A DNA stretch of 24,000 bases, taken from the NCBI RefSeq assembly GCF_041154675.1, contig NZ_AP031322.1, forward strand, positions 1,711,812 to 1,735,811, read 5' to 3'. The notes under the pieces are model-generated. The model saw only the letters and a list, made by a program, of their open reading frames with translations, had not been told where the DNA came from and ran no database searches. The position numbers and the translations under genes are program-made. Shown here one piece after another: positions 6,179-20,424 of this stretch (positions are counted from its first letter, which is position 1; every line of letters begins with the position of its first letter). This stretch comes from Sulfurisphaera javensis (GTDB lineage: Archaea > Thermoproteota > Thermoprotei_A > Sulfolobales > Sulfolobaceae).

Positions 6179-7630
6179 ATGGGTATATTAAGCAAAAAGG
6201 TAGGATGGCTTGAGAAAGAAGTTCTGCACATTTTAGATCTAATACCACTCTCGACCTCTAGTGTTGCACCTACATTCAGCATAGCTGCCGCCTATGGAAG
6301 CATGGTAGCATTAATGGGTCCTTCAGCAATTATGGCTGTGATAACTTCATTCCCCTTCTTCCTTTTTGCATCTATTATATTTAGACAATTAAATAAAAAA
6401 GCTCCTCATTGTGGAGCTTCTTATCATTGGGGTGCCAAGTTAGTTAGTACGAGGTATGGTGCTTTTCAATTTTGGATTGTTACTTTAGCTTATTTCTTAT
6501 CACTACCACCCATAATTATACCAGCTGGTGAATATACTCTTGATTTACTTTATAGACTTGGTTTAATAAGTAGGGGAATGGAGTTAAGCGTATTTTGGGA
6601 TTCTATTGTGGGAATAATTTGGGCTTTAATTGCAGCAATACCATTATTATTGGGGGCAAAACCAACAGCAAGATTTACAGAAGTATTCCTTGCAATAGAG
6701 TTAGTAATACTTTCTTCATTTGTAGTAATCGGAATTATCTCTTTACCTACTCATGCTGTAAATCAATTTAATTGGTCATGGTTCTTTAATCCTAAGTGGT
6801 TCTCAACCCCCTCATACTTTTTAACTTTAGCCGCAACAATGGTAATAGTAGCAACAATACTTGACGGTTGGGAGATTGATAGTTACGCATCAGAAGAATC
6901 TAAAAAACCCTATCACTGGCCAGGTTTATCTGGTATAGTGGGGCTAATTAGTGTGTTCATAATTTATATAATTACGATGCCTATTATGACTATCGAGACG
7001 CCAATATCGGCCTTAGCTTCAAGTGTTGATCCTTTAGCCAGATGGGCTTCTTACGTAATTCCGCAATATGTTTGGTTAATGGATATTGCTGTAATTGCTT
7101 CTACAGCCTCTTCTTTATGGCTTACAGCATTTATACTAACTAGGGCATGGTATGCAGCTGGAAGAGAAGGATTATTGCCAAAACCATTTGGATGGGTAAG
7201 TGAAAAATTCAAATCACCATGGTTTTCAATATTAATAGCAACTCTCTTCGAAGTTATAGTGCAATTACTGGAGCTTACATCTCCAAGCGTTCAATCATTT
7301 TTCGGGCTAGTATTAACTGGGGCTGGCGCATTCTTATTGACGGAATTTGGAATGGATTCACTAACAGCTACAATAACTTGGTGGAGAAACTATAGAACAA
7401 GTATAAAAGACTGGATAATTCGTATAATTGCCCCTATTACCTCACTAGGGATGTTTGGAATTATAATTATGGGTGTAATTAATGCCGGACCGGCATTTGG
7501 ATATAGTACTATAGAATATAGCTTAACACTTTTGATATTAACCTTAATAGGAGTTCCGTTTATCTTTAGACATTATAATATAATAACACCTAATTGGTTA
7601 CACCAAGTAACAAAGAAAGAGTTAAGATAA
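6179..7630 (+). CDS. APC-superfamily amino acid/polyamine permease
   Basis: 483 aa with about 12 hydrophobic segments. The N-terminal region LIPLSTSSVAPTFSIAAAYG and the overall layout are typical of APC transporters. Confidence 0.7.
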   Translation: MGILSKKVGWLEKEVLHILDLIPLSTSSVAPTFSIAAAYGSMVALMGPSAIMAVITSFPFFLFASIIFRQLNKKAPHCGASYHWGAKLVSTRYGAFQFWIVTLAYFLSLPPIIIPAGEYTLDLLYRLGLISRGMELSVFWDSIVGIIWALIAAIPLLLGAKPTARFTEVFLAIELVILSSFVVIGIISLPTHAVNQFNWSWFFNPKWFSTPSYFLTLAATMVIVATILDGWEIDSYASEESKKPYHWPGLSGIVGLISVFIIYIITMPIMTIETPISALASSVDPLARWASYVIPQYVWLMDIAVIASTASSLWLTAFILTRAWYAAGREGLLPKPFGWVSEKFKSPWFSILIATLFEVIVQLLELTSPSVQSFFGLVLTGAGAFLLTEFGMDSLTATITWWRNYRTSIKDWIIRIIAPITSLGMFGIIIMGVINAGPAFGYSTIEYSLTLLILTLIGVPFIFRHYNIITPNWLHQVTKKELR

Positions 7631-13278: not shown

Positions 13279-14808
13279 CTAAATAAGCTTTAGCATGTGC
13301 ACATTACATACCATACAAGCATCATGAGACCTAACTATATGATAAACCTCAATTGGATTATCTACATTAGAAACTTCAGTACCTATTAAAGCTAAAGGTA
13401 AATGACTCTTATTACCTAAAGGATCCTCTGGACCCATGTTAATTTGAGTAGGAGTCACAATTTGATAATTTAAGATCTTACCACCTTTAATTACTATCCA
13501 ATGACCTAATGCACCTCTTGGAGCTTCAACTAACCCATATCCTTTTCCTTCAATAACATCGTTCGGTTTCTTATAAGTAGGCTTACCGAACTTAAAATTA
13601 TTTAACTCATTAATCATAAGTTCATTATAAATTATTATTCTTATTATCCTGGCAATTATTCTTGAAAGTACACTTGGACCAATCTTATCGACCATATCAA
13701 AGACTATAGGATTTTTTGAAATAGTTAACATTGCTAATGCGCCAACTTCTGGTGCCAATAACTTACCATCATATTTATATCTAAAGCACTTAGTCAATGA
13801 ATATTTTCTTTTATCATCTGTTAAGTTGGGATTTGTCTCACCTTGAAAAGGATGTAAACCAATATTATCTCCTAAAGTATATGTGTAATATGAAGAATTA
13901 ACGAATTCTAGTATATTCTCTTGATTAAATTCCTTAAATTCCTTCTCTTTTACAAAGAAAATACCAGGTTTAAAATATTTCTTCCTTGGAACTCCTACAT
14001 ATTCTTCTGATGGTAAATGACCATAACTGAGGAAAATTCCAGAACCATATCCCAATTTATGCCAATTAGCTTCTAATCCAAATTCGATTATTTTTGATAA
14101 GTCTCCTTGTTTATAATCTTCAGCCCATTGTAATAAGTCTTTATAACTTTTAACGGTGCTCATAAATTGCTCTACTGGTCCTCCTAAGATAGTTTTTTCT
14201 AAATAATTTTGTTTAATATTTATCAATATTGATATTGCTTTATTTATCTCATTAGGTAAAGGATCTGATGTGACCCCTCCAGGAATTATAGCTGAACCAT
14301 GAGGCCATTGACCTCCAAAAATAGCATAAACTTCAGTATACTTTTTTGACCATCTAAAACATTCTTTGTATGATGAACCATTAATAGGGGCCCATCTCTT
14401 TAAAGCTTCATCAAAAATCGCATAATCTTGGTATTTTCTGTTCACAACATCAATTAAAAACATAAAATAAGTATGCCTTAAATCATTTTGACAACTTTCA
14501 GCCATACTCAATACATTTCTTATCCTTACAGCATTTTCTGGGACTTCAGCATTATAAATCATATCTAATGCTGAGGCTGATGCATATAAATGAGAGGCTC
14601 CACATATACCACAGACTCTTGGGGTTATAACTAAAGCGTCTAAAGGATTTTTACCTTTAAGAATTATTTCTATACCTCTAAATAATCTTGAGATTATTTT
14701 AGCATCAACAACTTTATTCTTTTCAAACTTTACCTCAACATCTAAATCTCCTTCAACTCTATTAAATGGAGAAATAATTTTATTACTCAAGCCACTCCAC
14801 CTTTTCAT
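13279..14808 (-). CDS. [NiFe]-hydrogenase large subunit, hydrogenase B
   Basis: 509 aa. Motifs NRVEGDLDV, FRGIEIILKGK...PRVCGICGASH (L1), GGQWPHGSAIIPGG and EAPRGALGHW. C-terminal HDACMVCNVH (L2 variant with DAC instead of DPC) is followed by only MLKLI. An alternative TTG start at 14790 follows GGTGGAG. Confidence 0.92.
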   Translation of the reverse strand: MKRWSGLSNKIISPFNRVEGDLDVEVKFEKNKVVDAKIISRLFRGIEIILKGKNPLDALVITPRVCGICGASHLYASASALDMIYNAEVPENAVRIRNVLSMAESCQNDLRHTYFMFLIDVVNRKYQDYAIFDEALKRWAPINGSSYKECFRWSKKYTEVYAIFGGQWPHGSAIIPGGVTSDPLPNEINKAISILINIKQNYLEKTILGGPVEQFMSTVKSYKDLLQWAEDYKQGDLSKIIEFGLEANWHKLGYGSGIFLSYGHLPSEEYVGVPRKKYFKPGIFFVKEKEFKEFNQENILEFVNSSYYTYTLGDNIGLHPFQGETNPNLTDDKRKYSLTKCFRYKYDGKLLAPEVGALAMLTISKNPIVFDMVDKIGPSVLSRIIARIIRIIIYNELMINELNNFKFGKPTYKKPNDVIEGKGYGLVEAPRGALGHWIVIKGGKILNYQIVTPTQINMGPEDPLGNKSHLPLALIGTEVSNVDNPIEVYHIVRSHDACMVCNVHMLKLI

Positions 14809-15757
14809 CTTTCTTGTACAAAGGTTTCACTAAGAAATTAGGCGCAGAAGCTCTAGCTATAGCTGAGTAAGTAGTATAAGCACCTCTACTCACTCCTAAG
14901 GGTAACCTCTTCGGTAAACCACTTCTGTTTTTTTCAGTTACGAAAAAGTTAAATGTAGGGAAATCAAACTCTGTACACCCAAAACATGGAGTACCAACTC
15001 TAGTCTTACTACTCTGATTATTCCAGAGAATTATATTACATGGACTTTTAGTGAATGAACCCCTACAACCTAAGTCAAAATATAAACATCCTTCTCTATG
15101 TCCGAACTCTTTTAAAGATATTTTATATGAGAAGTATAAACTCCTTGGACAACCAAATTGTGTAGTTGTACTATAAATTATTTTTAATCTTTGGTACTCA
15201 TCTAAATCCTCTTCAGATAAGCTATCTGTCAATATTTTAGATAATGTTGTAGTAATCCACTCTGGATGAGCTGGACATCCAGGAATATTTATTACTGGAA
15301 AATTCTTTCTAGATCTGTAATCTTTCCCTAAAAATCCTCCTTTTTCTTTTTTATGAAATTATAAACCAGTAGATTCTGTTGGATTTGGCTCAGAAGCCGG
15401 AACACCACCAAAACTTGCACAATCTCCAACAGCTACAACATAATTTGCTACTTTCGAAATCTCATAAACCCAGTCCTTCATAGGCTTTCCAGCAAAAATA
15501 TTAAACTTTCCAGTACCATTTGGACCTAAAACTACAGTACCTTCAAATATAAATACGTCTAACTGAATTTTCTCTTTAATAATTTGTTGCAAAATTTCTC
15601 TTACTTTATCACCAGTTTCTAAAGATAATGATGGATGCCATAATAACTTTGCATTATACATTTCGAAGAACTCTAATACATCTGGATTTTCTGCATTAAG
15701 AAATGAAAGTGTGTTACCACCACATGCTCCTCCTTGAAGCCATAAAATTGTTCTCAT
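14783..15757 (-). pseudogene. [NiFe]-hydrogenase small subunit, hydrogenase B (no Tat signal), interrupted by one in-frame TAA at 15359-15361
   Basis: ORF fragments 15359..15757 and 14783..15232 share one frame. Translation across the gap reads ...NPTESTGL*FHKKEKGGFLGKDYRSRKNFPVINIPGCPAHPEWITTTLSKIL.... The N-terminal part has WLQGGACGGNT and VGDCASFGG. The C-terminal part has GCPR, CLYFDLGCRG, SPCN and TPCFGCTEFDFP. Confidence 0.85.
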
Positions 15758-16419: not shown

Positions 16420-17475
16420 ATGAGTGATCCAAAAAGTGTGATAACTCTCTTACATGGTGCTGGAGGAGCTTATATGCATAATCTCATTAAAGAGTATTTT
16501 TTAAAGCTTGATGACAACTTTGGAGAAGTCGGTTTAGGTGTGTTAGATGACGCAGCAGTAATAAACGGAATAGTGTTCACAACTGACTCATATACAGTAA
16601 GGCCTATATTCTTTAGAGGTGGAGATATTGGAAGATTAGCTGTCAGCGGAACTGTTAATGATATAGCAATGATGGGAGGAGATCCTATAGCTTTAAGTTT
16701 AGCAGTTGTTATAGAAGAGGGTTTCTCCAAATCGGACTTAGCAAAGATTGTGGAAAGTATTAAAAGAACATGTGAAGAAGCTAACGTTCATATAGTAACT
16801 GGGGATACTAAAGTTATGGAAAGGAACTCACTTGATAAAATAGTAATAAACACTGGTGGTATTGGTATTGCTTCAGAGGAGTTAAAACATAACTTTAATG
16901 TGTTAAGAAAAAGTAGGGAAGTAAAATATGAATGGCTAGTTCCAATGAATATTAGAGATGGCGACAAAATAATCGTATCCGGGACAATAGGCGATCATGC
17001 AATAGCAATACTATCATCAAGAGAAGGTGTAGAATTCGAATCCAATATCCAATCAGATGTTATGCCTTTAAACAAAATGATGAAAAAAGTTTTAGAGGTA
17101 GGTGGAATAGCAGATGCAAAAGATCCTACGAGAGGAGGATTAGCCGATTTATTAAATGATTGGGCCGAAAAGTCAGGCTTAGGTATATATATAAAGGAGA
17201 GTGAGATACCAGTTAAAGAAGAAGTAAGTAGTGCGATTGAGTTTTTAGGATTGGATTTGTTAGAACTTGGAAATGAAGGAAAAGCTGTTTTGGCTGTATC
17301 ACCAGAAATGGCTAGAGATGTATTAGAGACTTTACATAGCACACCATGGGGTAAAGATGCCTCAATAATTGGGGAAGTAAGAAAAGATATTGAAGGTGTG
17401 ATATTAGAAACTGTTGTAGGGGGGAAGAGATTAGTAACAAGACCAACTGGAGACCCCGTGCCTAGAATATGTTAA
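16420..17475 (+). CDS. hypE: Hydrogenase maturation protein HypE (carbamoyl dehydratase)
   Basis: 351 aa with a PurM-like fold pattern (GDIGRLAVSGTVNDIAMMGG, VTGDTKV) and the diagnostic C-terminal PRIC. Confidence 0.95.
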   Translation: MSDPKSVITLLHGAGGAYMHNLIKEYFLKLDDNFGEVGLGVLDDAAVINGIVFTTDSYTVRPIFFRGGDIGRLAVSGTVNDIAMMGGDPIALSLAVVIEEGFSKSDLAKIVESIKRTCEEANVHIVTGDTKVMERNSLDKIVINTGGIGIASEELKHNFNVLRKSREVKYEWLVPMNIRDGDKIIVSGTIGDHAIAILSSREGVEFESNIQSDVMPLNKMMKKVLEVGGIADAKDPTRGGLADLLNDWAEKSGLGIYIKESEIPVKEEVSSAIEFLGLDLLELGNEGKAVLAVSPEMARDVLETLHSTPWGKDASIIGEVRKDIEGVILETVVGGKRLVTRPTGDPVPRIC

Positions 17476-17742
17476 ATGGTGAGTAAAGTGGGAAAACTTG
17501 TATGTTTAATATGTGAACATGAAGAGGAAGTACCTAAACATTGTGGAGTTGAAATGGATTATATTCTAAAAGGAAATTTTAGAAAAATAGAGTATTTAAA
17601 ATGTAAGATCTGTGGAGTAGAAAGGGAAGTCCCTAGGCATTGTGGTGTTCCTATGCTCTATATTGACGAAGATTATTTCCCTGTAAGTAAGTTAACTAAA
17701 TCAGAAATAGAGGAGATGAAAAAGCTTTATTCAGGTGAGTGA
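17476..17742 (+). CDS. Small Cys/His-rich protein with two tandem CxxC-x9-HCG-x2-M modules (putative metal-binding hydrogenase accessory protein)
   Basis: The ATG directly abuts the hypE stop, and the stop lies 1 nt before the hypC ATG. Internal duplication: VCLICEHEEEVPKHCGVEMDYI and KCKICGVEREVPRHCGVPMLYI. Confidence 0.6.
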   Translation: MVSKVGKLVCLICEHEEEVPKHCGVEMDYILKGNFRKIEYLKCKICGVEREVPRHCGVPMLYIDEDYFPVSKLTKSEIEEMKKLYSGE

Positions 17743-18022
17743 AATGTGTGTAGCCTATCCTGGGAAAGTAATTGAAATACATGGTGAATTTGCAAAAGTA
17801 GATTTCGGTGCGGGAACAATTAGAGATAATATACTCATAAGTCTAGTTAATGTTAAAGTTGGTGATTATGTTCTAGTTCATGCTGGATATGCTATTCAAG
17901 TAGTGGATGAAGATGAAGCAAGAAAGACTATTGAGATGTGGGAGGAGATGACTAAAGAATTAGATGAGGAACAGAAGAAAAAAGATTTATATGAAGCTAT
18001 AGGTAGTGGTGCAAATGAGTGA
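17735..18022 (+). CDS. hypC: Hydrogenase maturation chaperone HypC
   Basis: The true start is most likely the ATG at 17744, giving MCVAYPGKVIEI with the essential Cys2. GGTGAG SD lies just upstream. Conserved core GDYVLVHAGYAI. Confidence 0.9.
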   Translation: MSEMCVAYPGKVIEIHGEFAKVDFGAGTIRDNILISLVNVKVGDYVLVHAGYAIQVVDEDEARKTIEMWEEMTKELDEEQKKKDLYEAIGSGANE

Positions 18023-19145
18023 GAGACTACCACAAATTTTAAAATATTATAGAAATCCGACACTTGCCAAAAGCATAACAGAAAAAATTAACGAATTAGC
18101 AAAGAAAATTGAGGAAAATATATCAATTATGCACGTTTGTGGTTCACACGAATGGACCATAACACATTACGGTATTAGAGCATTATTGCCAGATAATGTT
18201 CAAGTAAGAGCAGGACCGGGATGTCCAGTATGTATAACTCCAGCAAAAGATATTGATGATGCAGTAAAGTTAGCATTAGACGGAATTGTTGTGATGACAT
18301 ATGGAGATATGAGCAGATCTAAAGGAACTAAAATGAGTTTACAAGATGCAAAAGCTTTAGGTGCTGACGTTAGAGTAGTTTATGGTGTACAAGATGCTGT
18401 ACAAATGGCAAGAAAAGAACCAAATAAAGATTTTGTATTCTTTGCTGTAGGAATGGATACTACAGCACCAGCAACTGCTTATGAAATACTCTCTGGCGTT
18501 CCACCTAATTTAAGCTTCTTGGTATCTTATAGATATACTCCATCAATACAAGGTTCTGTGATGGAATCTAACGTTTTAGGAATTGACGCTTTTATCTCCG
18601 CTGGCCATTCAGCTACAATTACTGGAATGAAACCGTATTACGAATACTTCTTAAGAACAAAAAAACCGGTAGTATTTTCAGGCTTTGAACCACTAGATAT
18701 ATTGCTTTCTGTTTATATGTTACTAAAGCAAATTTATGAGAATAAACCTAAACTTGAAAACGAATATACAAGGGCTGTAACATGGGAAGGAAATGTAAAA
18801 GCACAAAATGCAATGGAAAAAGTGTTTGAACTTGAAGACGGTTATGTAAGAGGAGTAGCTGTATTTCCAAAAGCTGGATTTAGGCTTAAAGATGAGTTTA
18901 AACATGCAGATACAAGGGAGAAATATGGCTTAAAGAAAGGGATTTCGACAGAAGATGAATATGTTACCGGGGCAAGATGCGGAGAAGTTGTCATGGGACT
19001 TATAGATCCGCCAGAATGTCCATTATATATGACTGTTTGTAAACCAGATGATCCTAAAGGAGCACCTATGGTATCTCAAGAAGGTACATGTTGGATTTGG
19101 GCACATCACAAAATAACTAACCTTGTGCCTAAGTGTAAGAGGTGA
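18006..19145 (+). CDS. hypD: Hydrogenase maturation protein HypD
   Basis: Motifs CGSHEW, GPGCPVCITP and GMDTTAP (GFETT variant), plus the C-terminal Fe-S motif CGEVVMG..PPECPLYMTVCKPDDPKGAPMVSQEGTC. Likely start is the ATG at 18015. Overlaps hypC. Confidence 0.95.
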   Translation: MVQMSERLPQILKYYRNPTLAKSITEKINELAKKIEENISIMHVCGSHEWTITHYGIRALLPDNVQVRAGPGCPVCITPAKDIDDAVKLALDGIVVMTYGDMSRSKGTKMSLQDAKALGADVRVVYGVQDAVQMARKEPNKDFVFFAVGMDTTAPATAYEILSGVPPNLSFLVSYRYTPSIQGSVMESNVLGIDAFISAGHSATITGMKPYYEYFLRTKKPVVFSGFEPLDILLSVYMLLKQIYENKPKLENEYTRAVTWEGNVKAQNAMEKVFELEDGYVRGVAVFPKAGFRLKDEFKHADTREKYGLKKGISTEDEYVTGARCGEVVMGLIDPPECPLYMTVCKPDDPKGAPMVSQEGTCWIWAHHKITNLVPKCKR

Positions 19146-19873
19146 CAAAAATAGTCTACATGATTGGTAATACATATTGTAAATTATGCCAAACAAATGA
19201 ACAACAATTAAAGGAAGAGCTTGTTAAAACTGTAAAAGCATTTTATTATAAAGGATTAGTAACAAATGCTGGTGGAAATCAGAGTGCTAGATTACCCGGA
19301 AGTAACAAAGTTTGGCTAACTCCTTCTGGCTATCCCAGAATGAGTTTGTCTCCAGAAGATTTAATAGCAGTTGATCTTGAAGGAAATGTTATAGAAGGAG
19401 ATTTAAAACCCTCTATTGAAGTTTATGCTCATCTAGAAGTTTATAAGAGAAGACCAGATGTAAATGCAGTAATTCACGCACATGTACCTTATGTAATGGG
19501 AGCAACAATATCTGGATTTTTGGAAATAACCCATGGAGAAGCGGCAGCAATATTAGGGGAAGTAAAGATTATCCCATACTATCACCCAGGGACTAAGGAG
19601 TTAGCTAAAGCTGTAGGCGAAGCATTTCAGGGTACAGGAATGAAGGTACCCAGAGTAGTAATAACATTAAACCACGGTGCGTTTTCAGCTGGAGCATGTA
19701 TTCATGAGGCTAGAGCTTTTATGGAAATTTTAGATGAGTGGGCTAGGTTTAATATTGCAGCTAAGGCGTTAGGAGGAATAAAACATAAATTAACGTTAAT
19801 CGACTTAAGAAAACCAGGAGCAGGGTACATTAGGGCGGTAAAATTTGGAGGAAGAGCAGGTAAAGTGTCTTGA
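19142..19873 (+). CDS. Class II aldolase/adducin-domain protein (FucA/MtnB-like), translationally coupled to hypD
   Basis: GGNQSARLPGSNKVWLTPSGYPRMSLSPEDLIAVDLEGNVIEGDLKPSIEVYAHLEVYKRRPDVNAVIHAHVPYVMG matches the class II aldolase pattern (GN.S.R..ITPSG...PS.E...H..IY..RPD..AV.H.H). The GTG at 19142 overlaps the hypD TGA. An alternative ATG is at 19160. Confidence 0.8.
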   Translation: MTKIVYMIGNTYCKLCQTNEQQLKEELVKTVKAFYYKGLVTNAGGNQSARLPGSNKVWLTPSGYPRMSLSPEDLIAVDLEGNVIEGDLKPSIEVYAHLEVYKRRPDVNAVIHAHVPYVMGATISGFLEITHGEAAAILGEVKIIPYYHPGTKELAKAVGEAFQGTGMKVPRVVITLNHGAFSAGACIHEARAFMEILDEWARFNIAAKALGGIKHKLTLIDLRKPGAGYIRAVKFGGRAGKVS

Positions 19874-20150
19874 GAATTTAAAGAATGTAATAGAACCAGA
19901 AACTGGGTTACCAATAACAGAGTTAGGACTTGTGAGAATTGCAAAAGAAAATGGAGAATTAGTTATAACTTATATACCAATTTCAGCTTACTCTCCTCAA
20001 ATCTTAGTCATTTCTGTTGGAATTCAATTAGTAAAAGAATGCAATGCTAAGGTTAAAATAGAGAATTATTATTTAGAAGAAGAAATAAATAAAAGACTGG
20101 AGGAACTAAGGAATGAACTCTCACGTGTACTTAGCAAAACATCTTCTTGA
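19845..20150 (+). CDS. DUF59/MIP18-like small protein (Fe-S assembly-related fold), atypical
   Basis: LKNVIEPETGLPITELGLVRIAKENGELVITYIP resembles the DUF59 N-terminal pattern (L..V.DPE.g..i.eLGlv). The usual T..CP cysteine position reads SAYSP. The only in-frame start is the TTG at 19845, which overlaps the aldolase-like gene by 29 nt. Confidence 0.45.
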   Translation: MEEEQVKCLENLKNVIEPETGLPITELGLVRIAKENGELVITYIPISAYSPQILVISVGIQLVKECNAKVKIENYYLEEEINKRLEELRNELSRVLSKTSS

Positions 20151-20424
20151 ATTATCAAAAAACTCAAGTGATAATATAATTAAGCTTCAAGCACTTCTTA
20201 GATGCGTAGAGGAGTTAGCTATATATAAGTACAAAATTGATGATTCTATGGAAAATTATCAGAAAATAACAATAAATTTCATTAAAAATGATAAGGAATT
20301 ATATGATTTATATTCTATTGTTCTCGATCTAATATTTTACTATTTATTGGGAGGAGAAAATATTAATGTTAGTGAAATAGAGGAAAAAATAAATGAGAAG
20401 ATCAATCAGATAAAAGAGATTTAA
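20113..20424 (+). CDS. Hypothetical helical protein, last ORF of the hyp operon
   Basis: 103-aa ORF whose ATG overlaps the previous ORF by 38 nt. I recognise no family motif. Its 3' end overlaps the convergent HypC-like gene by 23 nt. Confidence 0.35.
   Translation: MNSHVYLAKHLLELSKNSSDNIIKLQALLRCVEELAIYKYKIDDSMENYQKITINFIKNDKELYDLYSIVLDLIFYYLLGGENINVSEIEEKINEKINQIKEI

Follow-up and report, generated by a model that had tools for sequence, protein, structure and literature searches.

The six proteins HypA to HypF are regarded as the full core machinery that builds the [NiFe] active site of hydrogenases, and most of what is known about this Hyp pathway comes from E. coli, Cupriavidus and Thermococcus. 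One of its members, HypA (PF01155; about 110–140 aa), combines an MHE nickel site with a Cys-knuckle zinc site, in which the knuckles are spaced as C-x2-C-x12–13-C-x2-C. In proteobacteria with O2-tolerant [NiFe]-hydrogenases, which build the enzyme in air, the hydrogenase accessory genes also include HoxR or HupI; these are true rubredoxins with four Cys ligands, whose genes adjoin the small-subunit maturation genes and which act on the proximal Fe-S cluster, HoxR being required for aerobic maturation (PMC10583674). A further point of comparison is offered by desulforedoxin and the N-terminal domain of desulfoferrodoxin (PF06397; 1DXG, 1DFX), in which a C-x2-C-G knuckle is followed by an adjacent pair of ligands, read as C-C-G-x-x-M in desulforedoxin and as C-C-N-x-x-M in desulfoferrodoxin.

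The hydrogenases of the Sulfolobales have to be assembled in air, at 70 °C and at low pH. In Sulfurisphaera javensis, the maturation operon holds a small gene between hypE and hypC, here called X, of which the product (the knuckle protein) is a testable candidate for an extra step or an adaptor in this assembly. In full-text literature searches, no description of a small zinc-ribbon or Cys-rich protein encoded between hypE and hypC came up. A study on the hydrogenases of Acidianus brierleyi labels the unnamed small genes of such clusters only as 'hypothetical cytosolic protein' (PMC11018855); oxidation of atmospheric H2 by Sulfolobales hydrogenases was recently shown (PMC11018855). The family of the knuckle protein is undescribed, and the protein makes a good candidate for a so far unnoticed helper in [NiFe]-hydrogenase maturation. 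Its knuckle with adjacent His and Cys would be a motif new to the small metal-binding domains; if the protein is a plain structural Zn adaptor, the gain will be modest, namely one better-annotated gene family. Unless another contig is named, coordinates below refer to the window, which is the whole 24,000-nucleotide stretch of DNA that was analysed.

Gene, neighbours and start codon

The longest open reading frame at this position, its neighbours and its motif are as the sequence-only reading had described them (Table 1). The ATG at 17476 follows immediately on the stop codon of hypE (TAA, 17473–17475), and the frame ends with TGA (17740–17742) just before the hypC ATG at 17744. Judged from the signals around it, the true start is likely to be the GTG at 17488 rather than the ATG at 17476. 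The hexamer GGTGAG that precedes this GTG is found again at 17734–17739, with the same spacing of 4 nt, before the ATG of hypC. Homologues start nearly all with ATG, and in one case with TTG, at the position that aligns with GTG 17488 (M(A/G)KL), and their start codons lie 9–13 nt 3' of the hypE stop and are mostly preceded by a GGTGA-like motif. With a start at GTG 17488, the coupling to hypE is tight, but probably not of the type in which stop and start abut. Of the translational coupling that had been proposed on both sides, the junction with hypC holds, whereas the ATG abutting the hypE stop is probably not a real start. Residues are numbered according to the 84-aa form that begins at GTG 17488.

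Table 1 Features of the hypE-X-hypC-hypD region in the window
Feature	Position	Strand	Remarks
hypE	16420..17475	+	351 aa, C-terminus PRIC; AIRS and AIRS_C domains; conserved upstream partner gene
HypE insertion	16882..16938	+	about 18 residues (about 155–173); marks the HypE subfamily of this operon type
Longest ORF of X, as first described	17476..17742	+	88 aa, stop codon included
Shine-Dalgarno-like GGTGAG	17478..17483	+	4 nt before GTG 17488
Most likely coding sequence of X	17488..17742	+	GTG start, 84 aa; identical to called protein P0001
Module 1	17494..17571	+	residues 3–28; putative ligands C6 (17503–17505), C9 (17512–17514), H18 (17539–17541), C19 (17542–17544)
Module 2	17593..17670	+	residues 36–61; putative ligands C39 (17602–17604), C42 (17611–17613), H51 (17638–17640), C52 (17641–17643)
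Clade-specific tail and predicted C-terminal helix	17671..17739	+	tail D-E-D-Y-x-P...; helix residues 71–81, SEIEEMKKLY
hypC	17744..18022	+	MCVAYPGK...; starts 1 nt past the stop of X
hypD	18006..19145	+	same operon

By its pattern of substitutions, the reading frame is a real gene under purifying selection: in comparisons with three orthologues (73% amino-acid identity), dN was 0.14–0.20 and dS was saturated.

Tandem modules, predicted fold and putative metal sites

The two halves of the protein, LVCLICEHEEEVPKHCGVEMDYI and LKCKICGVEREVPRHCGVPMLYI, are identical at 15 of 23 positions, and the score of this internal-repeat alignment was reached by none of 5000 shuffled sequences. The two tandem copies of one module that had been seen by eye are a clear internal duplication at the level of sequence. 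In an alignment of 18 hyp-linked members the residues C9, P16, H18, M23, G29, K33, C39, C42, P49, H51, C52 and M56 are invariant, with C6 nearly so, and all Cys residues fall within the motif (six in the Sulfolobaceae, five in the other clade). Position 19, the fourth putative ligand of module 1, is Cys in the Sulfolobaceae and His in the Nitrososphaerales-type clade. Positions 18 and 51 are His almost everywhere, Cys being found there in one distant member (P0023), which has C-C at the adjacent pair. Both hyp-linked clades conserve the tail and helix behind the modules, which the homologues that are not linked to hyp genes lack; they form a candidate element for docking to a partner.

Scans of the knuckle protein against Pfam and NCBIfam gave nothing above threshold, the best hits being generic zinc-finger models below their cut-offs. 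When the PDB was searched by sequence, either with the family profile or with an alignment of 42 single modules of 27 residues, only the first C-x2-C-G knuckle was matched, at E 0.011 or worse; its counterparts there belong to rubredoxins, ribosomal ribbons and proteins of a similar kind, with rubredoxins best (E 0.011–1.5, not significant). AlphaFold2, supplied with the family alignment, gave a fairly confident model (pLDDT 84.5, pTM 0.68) that is made up of two modules, each a three-stranded ribbon, an acidic linker of lower confidence and a helix spanning residues 71–81. A Foldseek comparison of this model with the PDB yielded no significant match (best E 0.48), and the top, non-significant hits were the tandem zinc ribbons Rpb9, TFIIS/C11 and Rpp21. 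In the predicted fold, two modules that resemble zinc ribbons precede a C-terminal helix, and the predicted secondary structure is compatible with the zinc-ribbon class. The claim that the protein falls outside the known zinc-ribbon, rubredoxin and HypA families agrees with the Pfam, NCBIfam, PDB profile and Foldseek results. With the zinc-ribbon and rubredoxin-knuckle class it shares the tandem arrangement of two modules, each with two predicted beta-hairpin knuckles of which the first is C-x2-C-G. It differs from that class in its second knuckle, where the adjacent ligands of P-x-H-[C/H]-G take the place of C-x2-C, in its mostly acidic to neutral character and its origin from a maturase operon, and in the lack of a significant match in sequence or fold.

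Two zinc-binding members of the Hyp pathway were considered as relatives. Like HypA, the knuckle protein is encoded in a hyp operon and has a (here predicted) Cys-knuckle zinc site. The HypA pattern is not matched, as had been noted from the sequence: the N-terminus is MGKL, there is neither an MHE nickel site nor the HypA spacing of the two CxxC pairs, and HypA gave no match in the Pfam and NCBIfam scans. The zinc finger of HypF (zf-HYPF, PF07503) was absent from the Pfam matches at E up to 10, and the HypF that is encoded in the window has both its own zinc fingers.

The sequence-only reading had further pointed to rubredoxins, and to HoxR/HupI in particular, and this idea fares less well. 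As with HoxR/HupI, a small Cys-knuckle metalloprotein (here predicted) is found among hydrogenase accessory genes in hosts that build the enzyme in air. In contrast to these proteins, the knuckle protein is not a rubredoxin by sequence, and its gene is tied to hypE. Its second knuckle reads V-P-x-H-[C/H]-G where a rubredoxin has C-P-x-C-G, and no Pfam rubredoxin match appeared at E up to 10. Since position 19 is Cys or His depending on the clade, and an Fe(Cys)4 centre is not expected to tolerate this, a redox role of the HoxR type is not supported.

Desulforedoxin comes closer by eye. The second knuckle, P-x-H-[C/H]-[G/N]-x-x-M, recalls the adjacent ligand pair and the G/N-x-x-M of desulforedoxin and desulfoferrodoxin, the modules have a similar length of about 30 residues, the two modules in one chain could mimic the desulforedoxin homodimer, and the one distant member mentioned above even has the C-C pair. 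On the other hand, His takes the place of the first Cys of the pair, and the two knuckles are separated by a loop that has about 7 residues fewer. The desulforedoxin domain (PF06397) itself, with C-C where the knuckle protein has H-C or H-H, gave no Pfam match at E up to 10, and in hhalign a desulforedoxin chain (1CFW/1DXG) was aligned over the first CxxC knuckle only (15 columns, probability 59%). Since the alignment is limited to this knuckle, homology to desulforedoxin is not demonstrated, and the likeness to desulforedoxin-type knuckles that had been noted is a lead at the level of the motif only.

These likenesses bear on the possibility that the protein carries mononuclear iron and is redox-active, its two sites being distorted versions of those in rubredoxin or desulforedoxin. 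It would then supply or withdraw electrons in cofactor assembly, for example at the [4Fe-4S]/disulfide relay of HypD, or would protect intermediates against O2 as HoxR/HupI do for proteobacterial hydrogenases. The rubredoxin matches of the first knuckle, the desulforedoxin-like second knuckle and the need for HoxR in aerobic maturation (PMC10583674) speak for such a protein. The missing Pfam matches and the restricted hhalign result weigh against it, as do a third ligand that is His almost everywhere with a fourth that is Cys or His, and the linkage of the gene to hypE, for which no need for electrons is known, instead of to small-subunit maturation genes. To our knowledge, rubredoxin-type centres have four Cys ligands, and we regard this explanation as rather unlikely. 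Also unlikely, and somewhat more so, is a related and bolder proposal, namely that the protein is a new Hyp-type factor with two desulforedoxin-like Cys2-His-Cys centres, a pseudo-dimer in a single chain, which would act directly with HypE. The cyano group that HypE bears on its C-terminal cysteine might be shielded or passed on by such a factor, or HypC-HypD might receive iron or electrons from it; in both cases, it would enable hot, acidic and oxygen-exposed cells to build the Fe(CN)2CO cofactor.

The exchange of Cys for His at position 19 between clades favours structural Zn over Fe of the rubredoxin type. Exchange of Cys and His at ligand positions is common and well tolerated in structural Zn sites, and we know of no case in the Fe(Cys)4 centres of rubredoxins. 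Each module of this small, cytoplasmic protein would bind one metal ion through Cys-x2-Cys and the adjacent His-Cys (or His-His), and the ion would most likely be a structural Zn(II).

Linkage to hypE and the proposed role

The family is very small: searching 1.84 billion representative proteins with HMMER gave 23 matches at E up to 0.001, and a profile search of 5.8 billion clusters gave 39, all of them unnamed or annotated as 'hypothetical protein', among which is B6F84_04380 of Acidianus manzaensis. A 1766-aa match (P0024) that was considered as a fusion partner contains an Ig domain only and is uninformative. Within the class of the window organism (351 genomes), strong matches were confined to its own family, where 13 of 47 genomes have the gene. 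All 13 of these Sulfolobaceae genomes have a hypE-X-hypC-hypD operon with the same tight spacing, and the gene is absent from five genomes of the family that have only the other type of hypD. A scan of genome contigs with the single protein gave Metallosphaera yellowstonensis MK1 as its sole match, with the order hypE-X-hypC-hypD-aldolase, and X was found directly 3' of hypE on metagenomic contigs too. A contig assigned to a MAG from another family of the phylum (L060; G589:C11) carries hypE-X-hypC-hypD at 70–86% identity to the window, either by recent lateral transfer or because it is a mis-binned Sulfolobaceae contig.

The members at 37–47% identity come from MAGs outside the class of the window organism, one of which is labelled Nitrososphaerales. 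The three Nitrososphaerales-type contexts show hypF-hypC-hypD-aldolase-protease, then a divergent large and a truncated small subunit, and then hypE-X followed by one further gene; X lies about 10 nt 3' of hypE there, although hypC and hypD have moved elsewhere. In G652, a complete genome of 1.6 Mb from another class, the order is hypC'-hypE-X, a gap, and hypC-hypD. Every examined member above about 37% identity is located directly 3' of hypE, and since the hypE-X pair is kept where hypC and hypD have moved, the conserved neighbour of X is hypE and not hypC. The linkage to hyp genes was conserved across lineages in all loci of the hyp-linked clades that were examined. In the genome to which the window belongs, a second hyp operon (hypD-hypC-hypE, alongside a group 1g-type hydrogenase) does without the knuckle gene, and the ORF 3' of its hypE is unrelated and encodes no Cys.

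A distribution that is random with respect to hyp genes had been named beforehand as an argument against a maturation role, and it was not found for the closer homologues, all of which follow hypE directly, in two archaeal classes. Whether homologues always sit in hyp operons had been put forward as a check; this holds for the closer ones, and fails for the distant homologues (34–36% identity), which lack the tail, have a degenerate second module in some cases, and are encoded outside hyp contexts: two bacterial ones directly after PAS-HisKA_3 kinases, the others in a Thorarchaeota MAG, near a hybrid kinase, and in one unrelated context. Given these contexts, the domain itself is not specific for hydrogenases. 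The two bacterial homologues (L048 4131–4382 and L051 4075–4263; 62–83 aa) start 30–100 nt after their sensor kinases, on unrelated contigs, and occupy the position in which one would look for a response regulator.

This last arrangement raises the possibility of a small regulator or sensor of a metal, a redox signal or a nucleic acid that tunes expression or activity of the hyp operon. The repeated kinase neighbourhood on two unrelated bacterial contigs, the hybrid kinase near the Thorarchaeota homologue, and the transcription-related zinc ribbons among the nearest folds would suit a regulator, but those ribbons were matched without significance, the pI is mostly acidic to neutral, a DNA-binding motif is missing, and the tight translational coupling in the middle of a maturase operon suggests a stoichiometric partner. 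We consider a regulatory function very doubtful.

It could also be argued that the gene is a conserved passenger with no role in maturation, which stays beside hypE through inheritance or transfer of the operon as a block. The identities between classes are 55–59% for HypE and 53–64% for HypD, so that one ancestral or transferred operon is possible, to which the linked loci may trace, and the number of independent observations is small. In addition, a 98% complete genome (G179) has a hypC-hypD-hypE-hypF operon and the knuckle gene nowhere, and this organism evidently lives without it. Against a mere passenger stand the persistence of the hypE-X pair through rearrangement of the operon in the Nitrososphaerales-type loci and in G652, and the strong purifying selection with invariant ligands across members at 37–47% identity. 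We regard the passenger explanation as highly improbable.

The partner gene has a mark of its own, the insertion of about 18 residues in HypE. Neither the second HypE of the genome nor the next-best HypEs of the class have this insertion, and the solved structures 3VTI, 2Z1E and 2Z1T lack it too, but the X-linked HypEs of the Nitrososphaerales type do carry it. The HypE of G179 carries the insertion as well, and it follows that the knuckle protein is dispensable for this type of HypE, and that the insertion marks a HypE subfamily without depending on the knuckle protein. An obligatory docking site for the knuckle protein, as which the insertion was considered, is weakened by this genome. A read-through model of a HypE-X fusion, with the in-frame TAA read as Gly and an alignment of 17 rows, was uninformative about an interface (pLDDT 42.7, pTM 0.35).

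Since the protein matches no known zinc-ribbon, rubredoxin or HypA family and its closer homologues are all encoded 3' of hypE, a new accessory factor of archaeal [NiFe] maturation with putative metal-binding sites, as proposed in the sequence-only reading, remains the best interpretation. In a more specific form, which we hold tentatively and at somewhat under an even chance, the knuckle protein would be a two-site metal-binding adaptor that is made together with HypE, and a candidate maturation factor as judged from its gene context. The ribbon-like model, the clade-specific tail and helix, the coupling to hypE, the exchange of ligands, and a pI that is acidic to neutral (mostly 5.4–6.9 across the family, unlike typical nucleic-acid-binding ribbons) together point to an adaptor of tandem ribbons with two Zn ions. 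It would be translated from the mRNA of HypE, starting 9–13 nt behind hypE, and would present the conserved acidic and aromatic tail and the amphipathic helix that follow the modules. As an adaptor or stabiliser of HypE, or as a bridge from HypE to HypC-HypD, it may assist in the synthesis of the cyanide ligands and their transfer to the iron scaffold on HypC-HypD, in a hyp system that would serve the hydrogenases of aerobic or facultative thermoacidophiles. The adjacent His-Cys ligand pair is unusual for a plain structural Zn ribbon and counts against such an adaptor, as do the genome without the gene, the distant homologues without hyp genes and the small number of independent loci.

HypA, HypB and the surrounding island

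It is true that hypA and hypB are missing from the window itself. The hint that the knuckle protein might stand in for them is not borne out, because both functions appear to be encoded about 7 kb upstream of the window in the same island, by a HypA that scores 81.6 bits, which exceeds the Pfam cut-off, and by an ATPase of the Mrp/NUBPL type. ATPases of this kind act as HypB in Thermococcus, and the one found here is likely to be the HypB analogue. With HypA and an Mrp-type HypB upstream, the knuckle protein is no replacement for them. The island is extended by this upstream region, in which HypA, the Mrp/NUBPL-type ATPase and a HycI-type protease are found at about 5–7.5 kb upstream (L055 4300–5407, which is genome C1:1704299–1705406, and 6719–7246). 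A further match to a HypB-like GTPase, below cut-off, lies about 25 kb downstream.

This gene content also bears on the proposal that the knuckle protein is a metallochaperone, which would store or deliver Ni(II) or Fe(II), either as a supplement to HypA and HypB or as an iron supply for HypC-HypD. A small soluble protein with Cys/His-rich sites in a hyp operon would fit this task; mixed sets of Cys and His ligands are common in proteins that handle Ni, and the source of the iron for HypCD is not known. With HypA and a HypB-like ATPase of the Mrp type nearby, there is no gap to fill, and the linkage is to the cyanation enzyme and not to nickel genes. The knuckle protein also has no MHE N-terminus, His-rich tract or N-terminal CxxCGC as in known nickel chaperones, and in the model its sites look buried and ribbon-like instead of exposed. 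A role in metal delivery is quite improbable in our opinion.

Several other genes of the island deserve mention. In this type of operon in the Sulfolobaceae, hypD is followed by a gene for a class II aldolase/adducin-domain protein (19142–19873 in the window), and one or two copies of such a gene, at 40–45% identity, are found in the Nitrososphaerales-type hyp clusters (L043 2937–3674 and 7627–8277; L045, L047). The aldolase/adducin gene may be a conserved member of this maturation module. It is followed by an ORF of 101 aa (19845–20150) with a weak, sub-threshold match to PF01883, an Fe-S assembly protein domain (E 0.0019); the Nitrososphaerales-type clusters yielded no equivalent of this ORF. 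The next ORF, at 20113–20424, shows weak similarity (25% identity, E 0.017) to the gene behind X in those clusters. On the other side of hypE, the small subunit gene of the neighbouring hydrogenase (14783–15757, minus strand) is interrupted by one in-frame TAA, with the same frame continuing on both sides. On a related metagenomic contig (L002 3803–4605) the small subunit is split as well, and the interval that separates it from the HxlR gene lacks the large subunit. It appears that more than one lineage is losing this neighbouring hydrogenase by decay.
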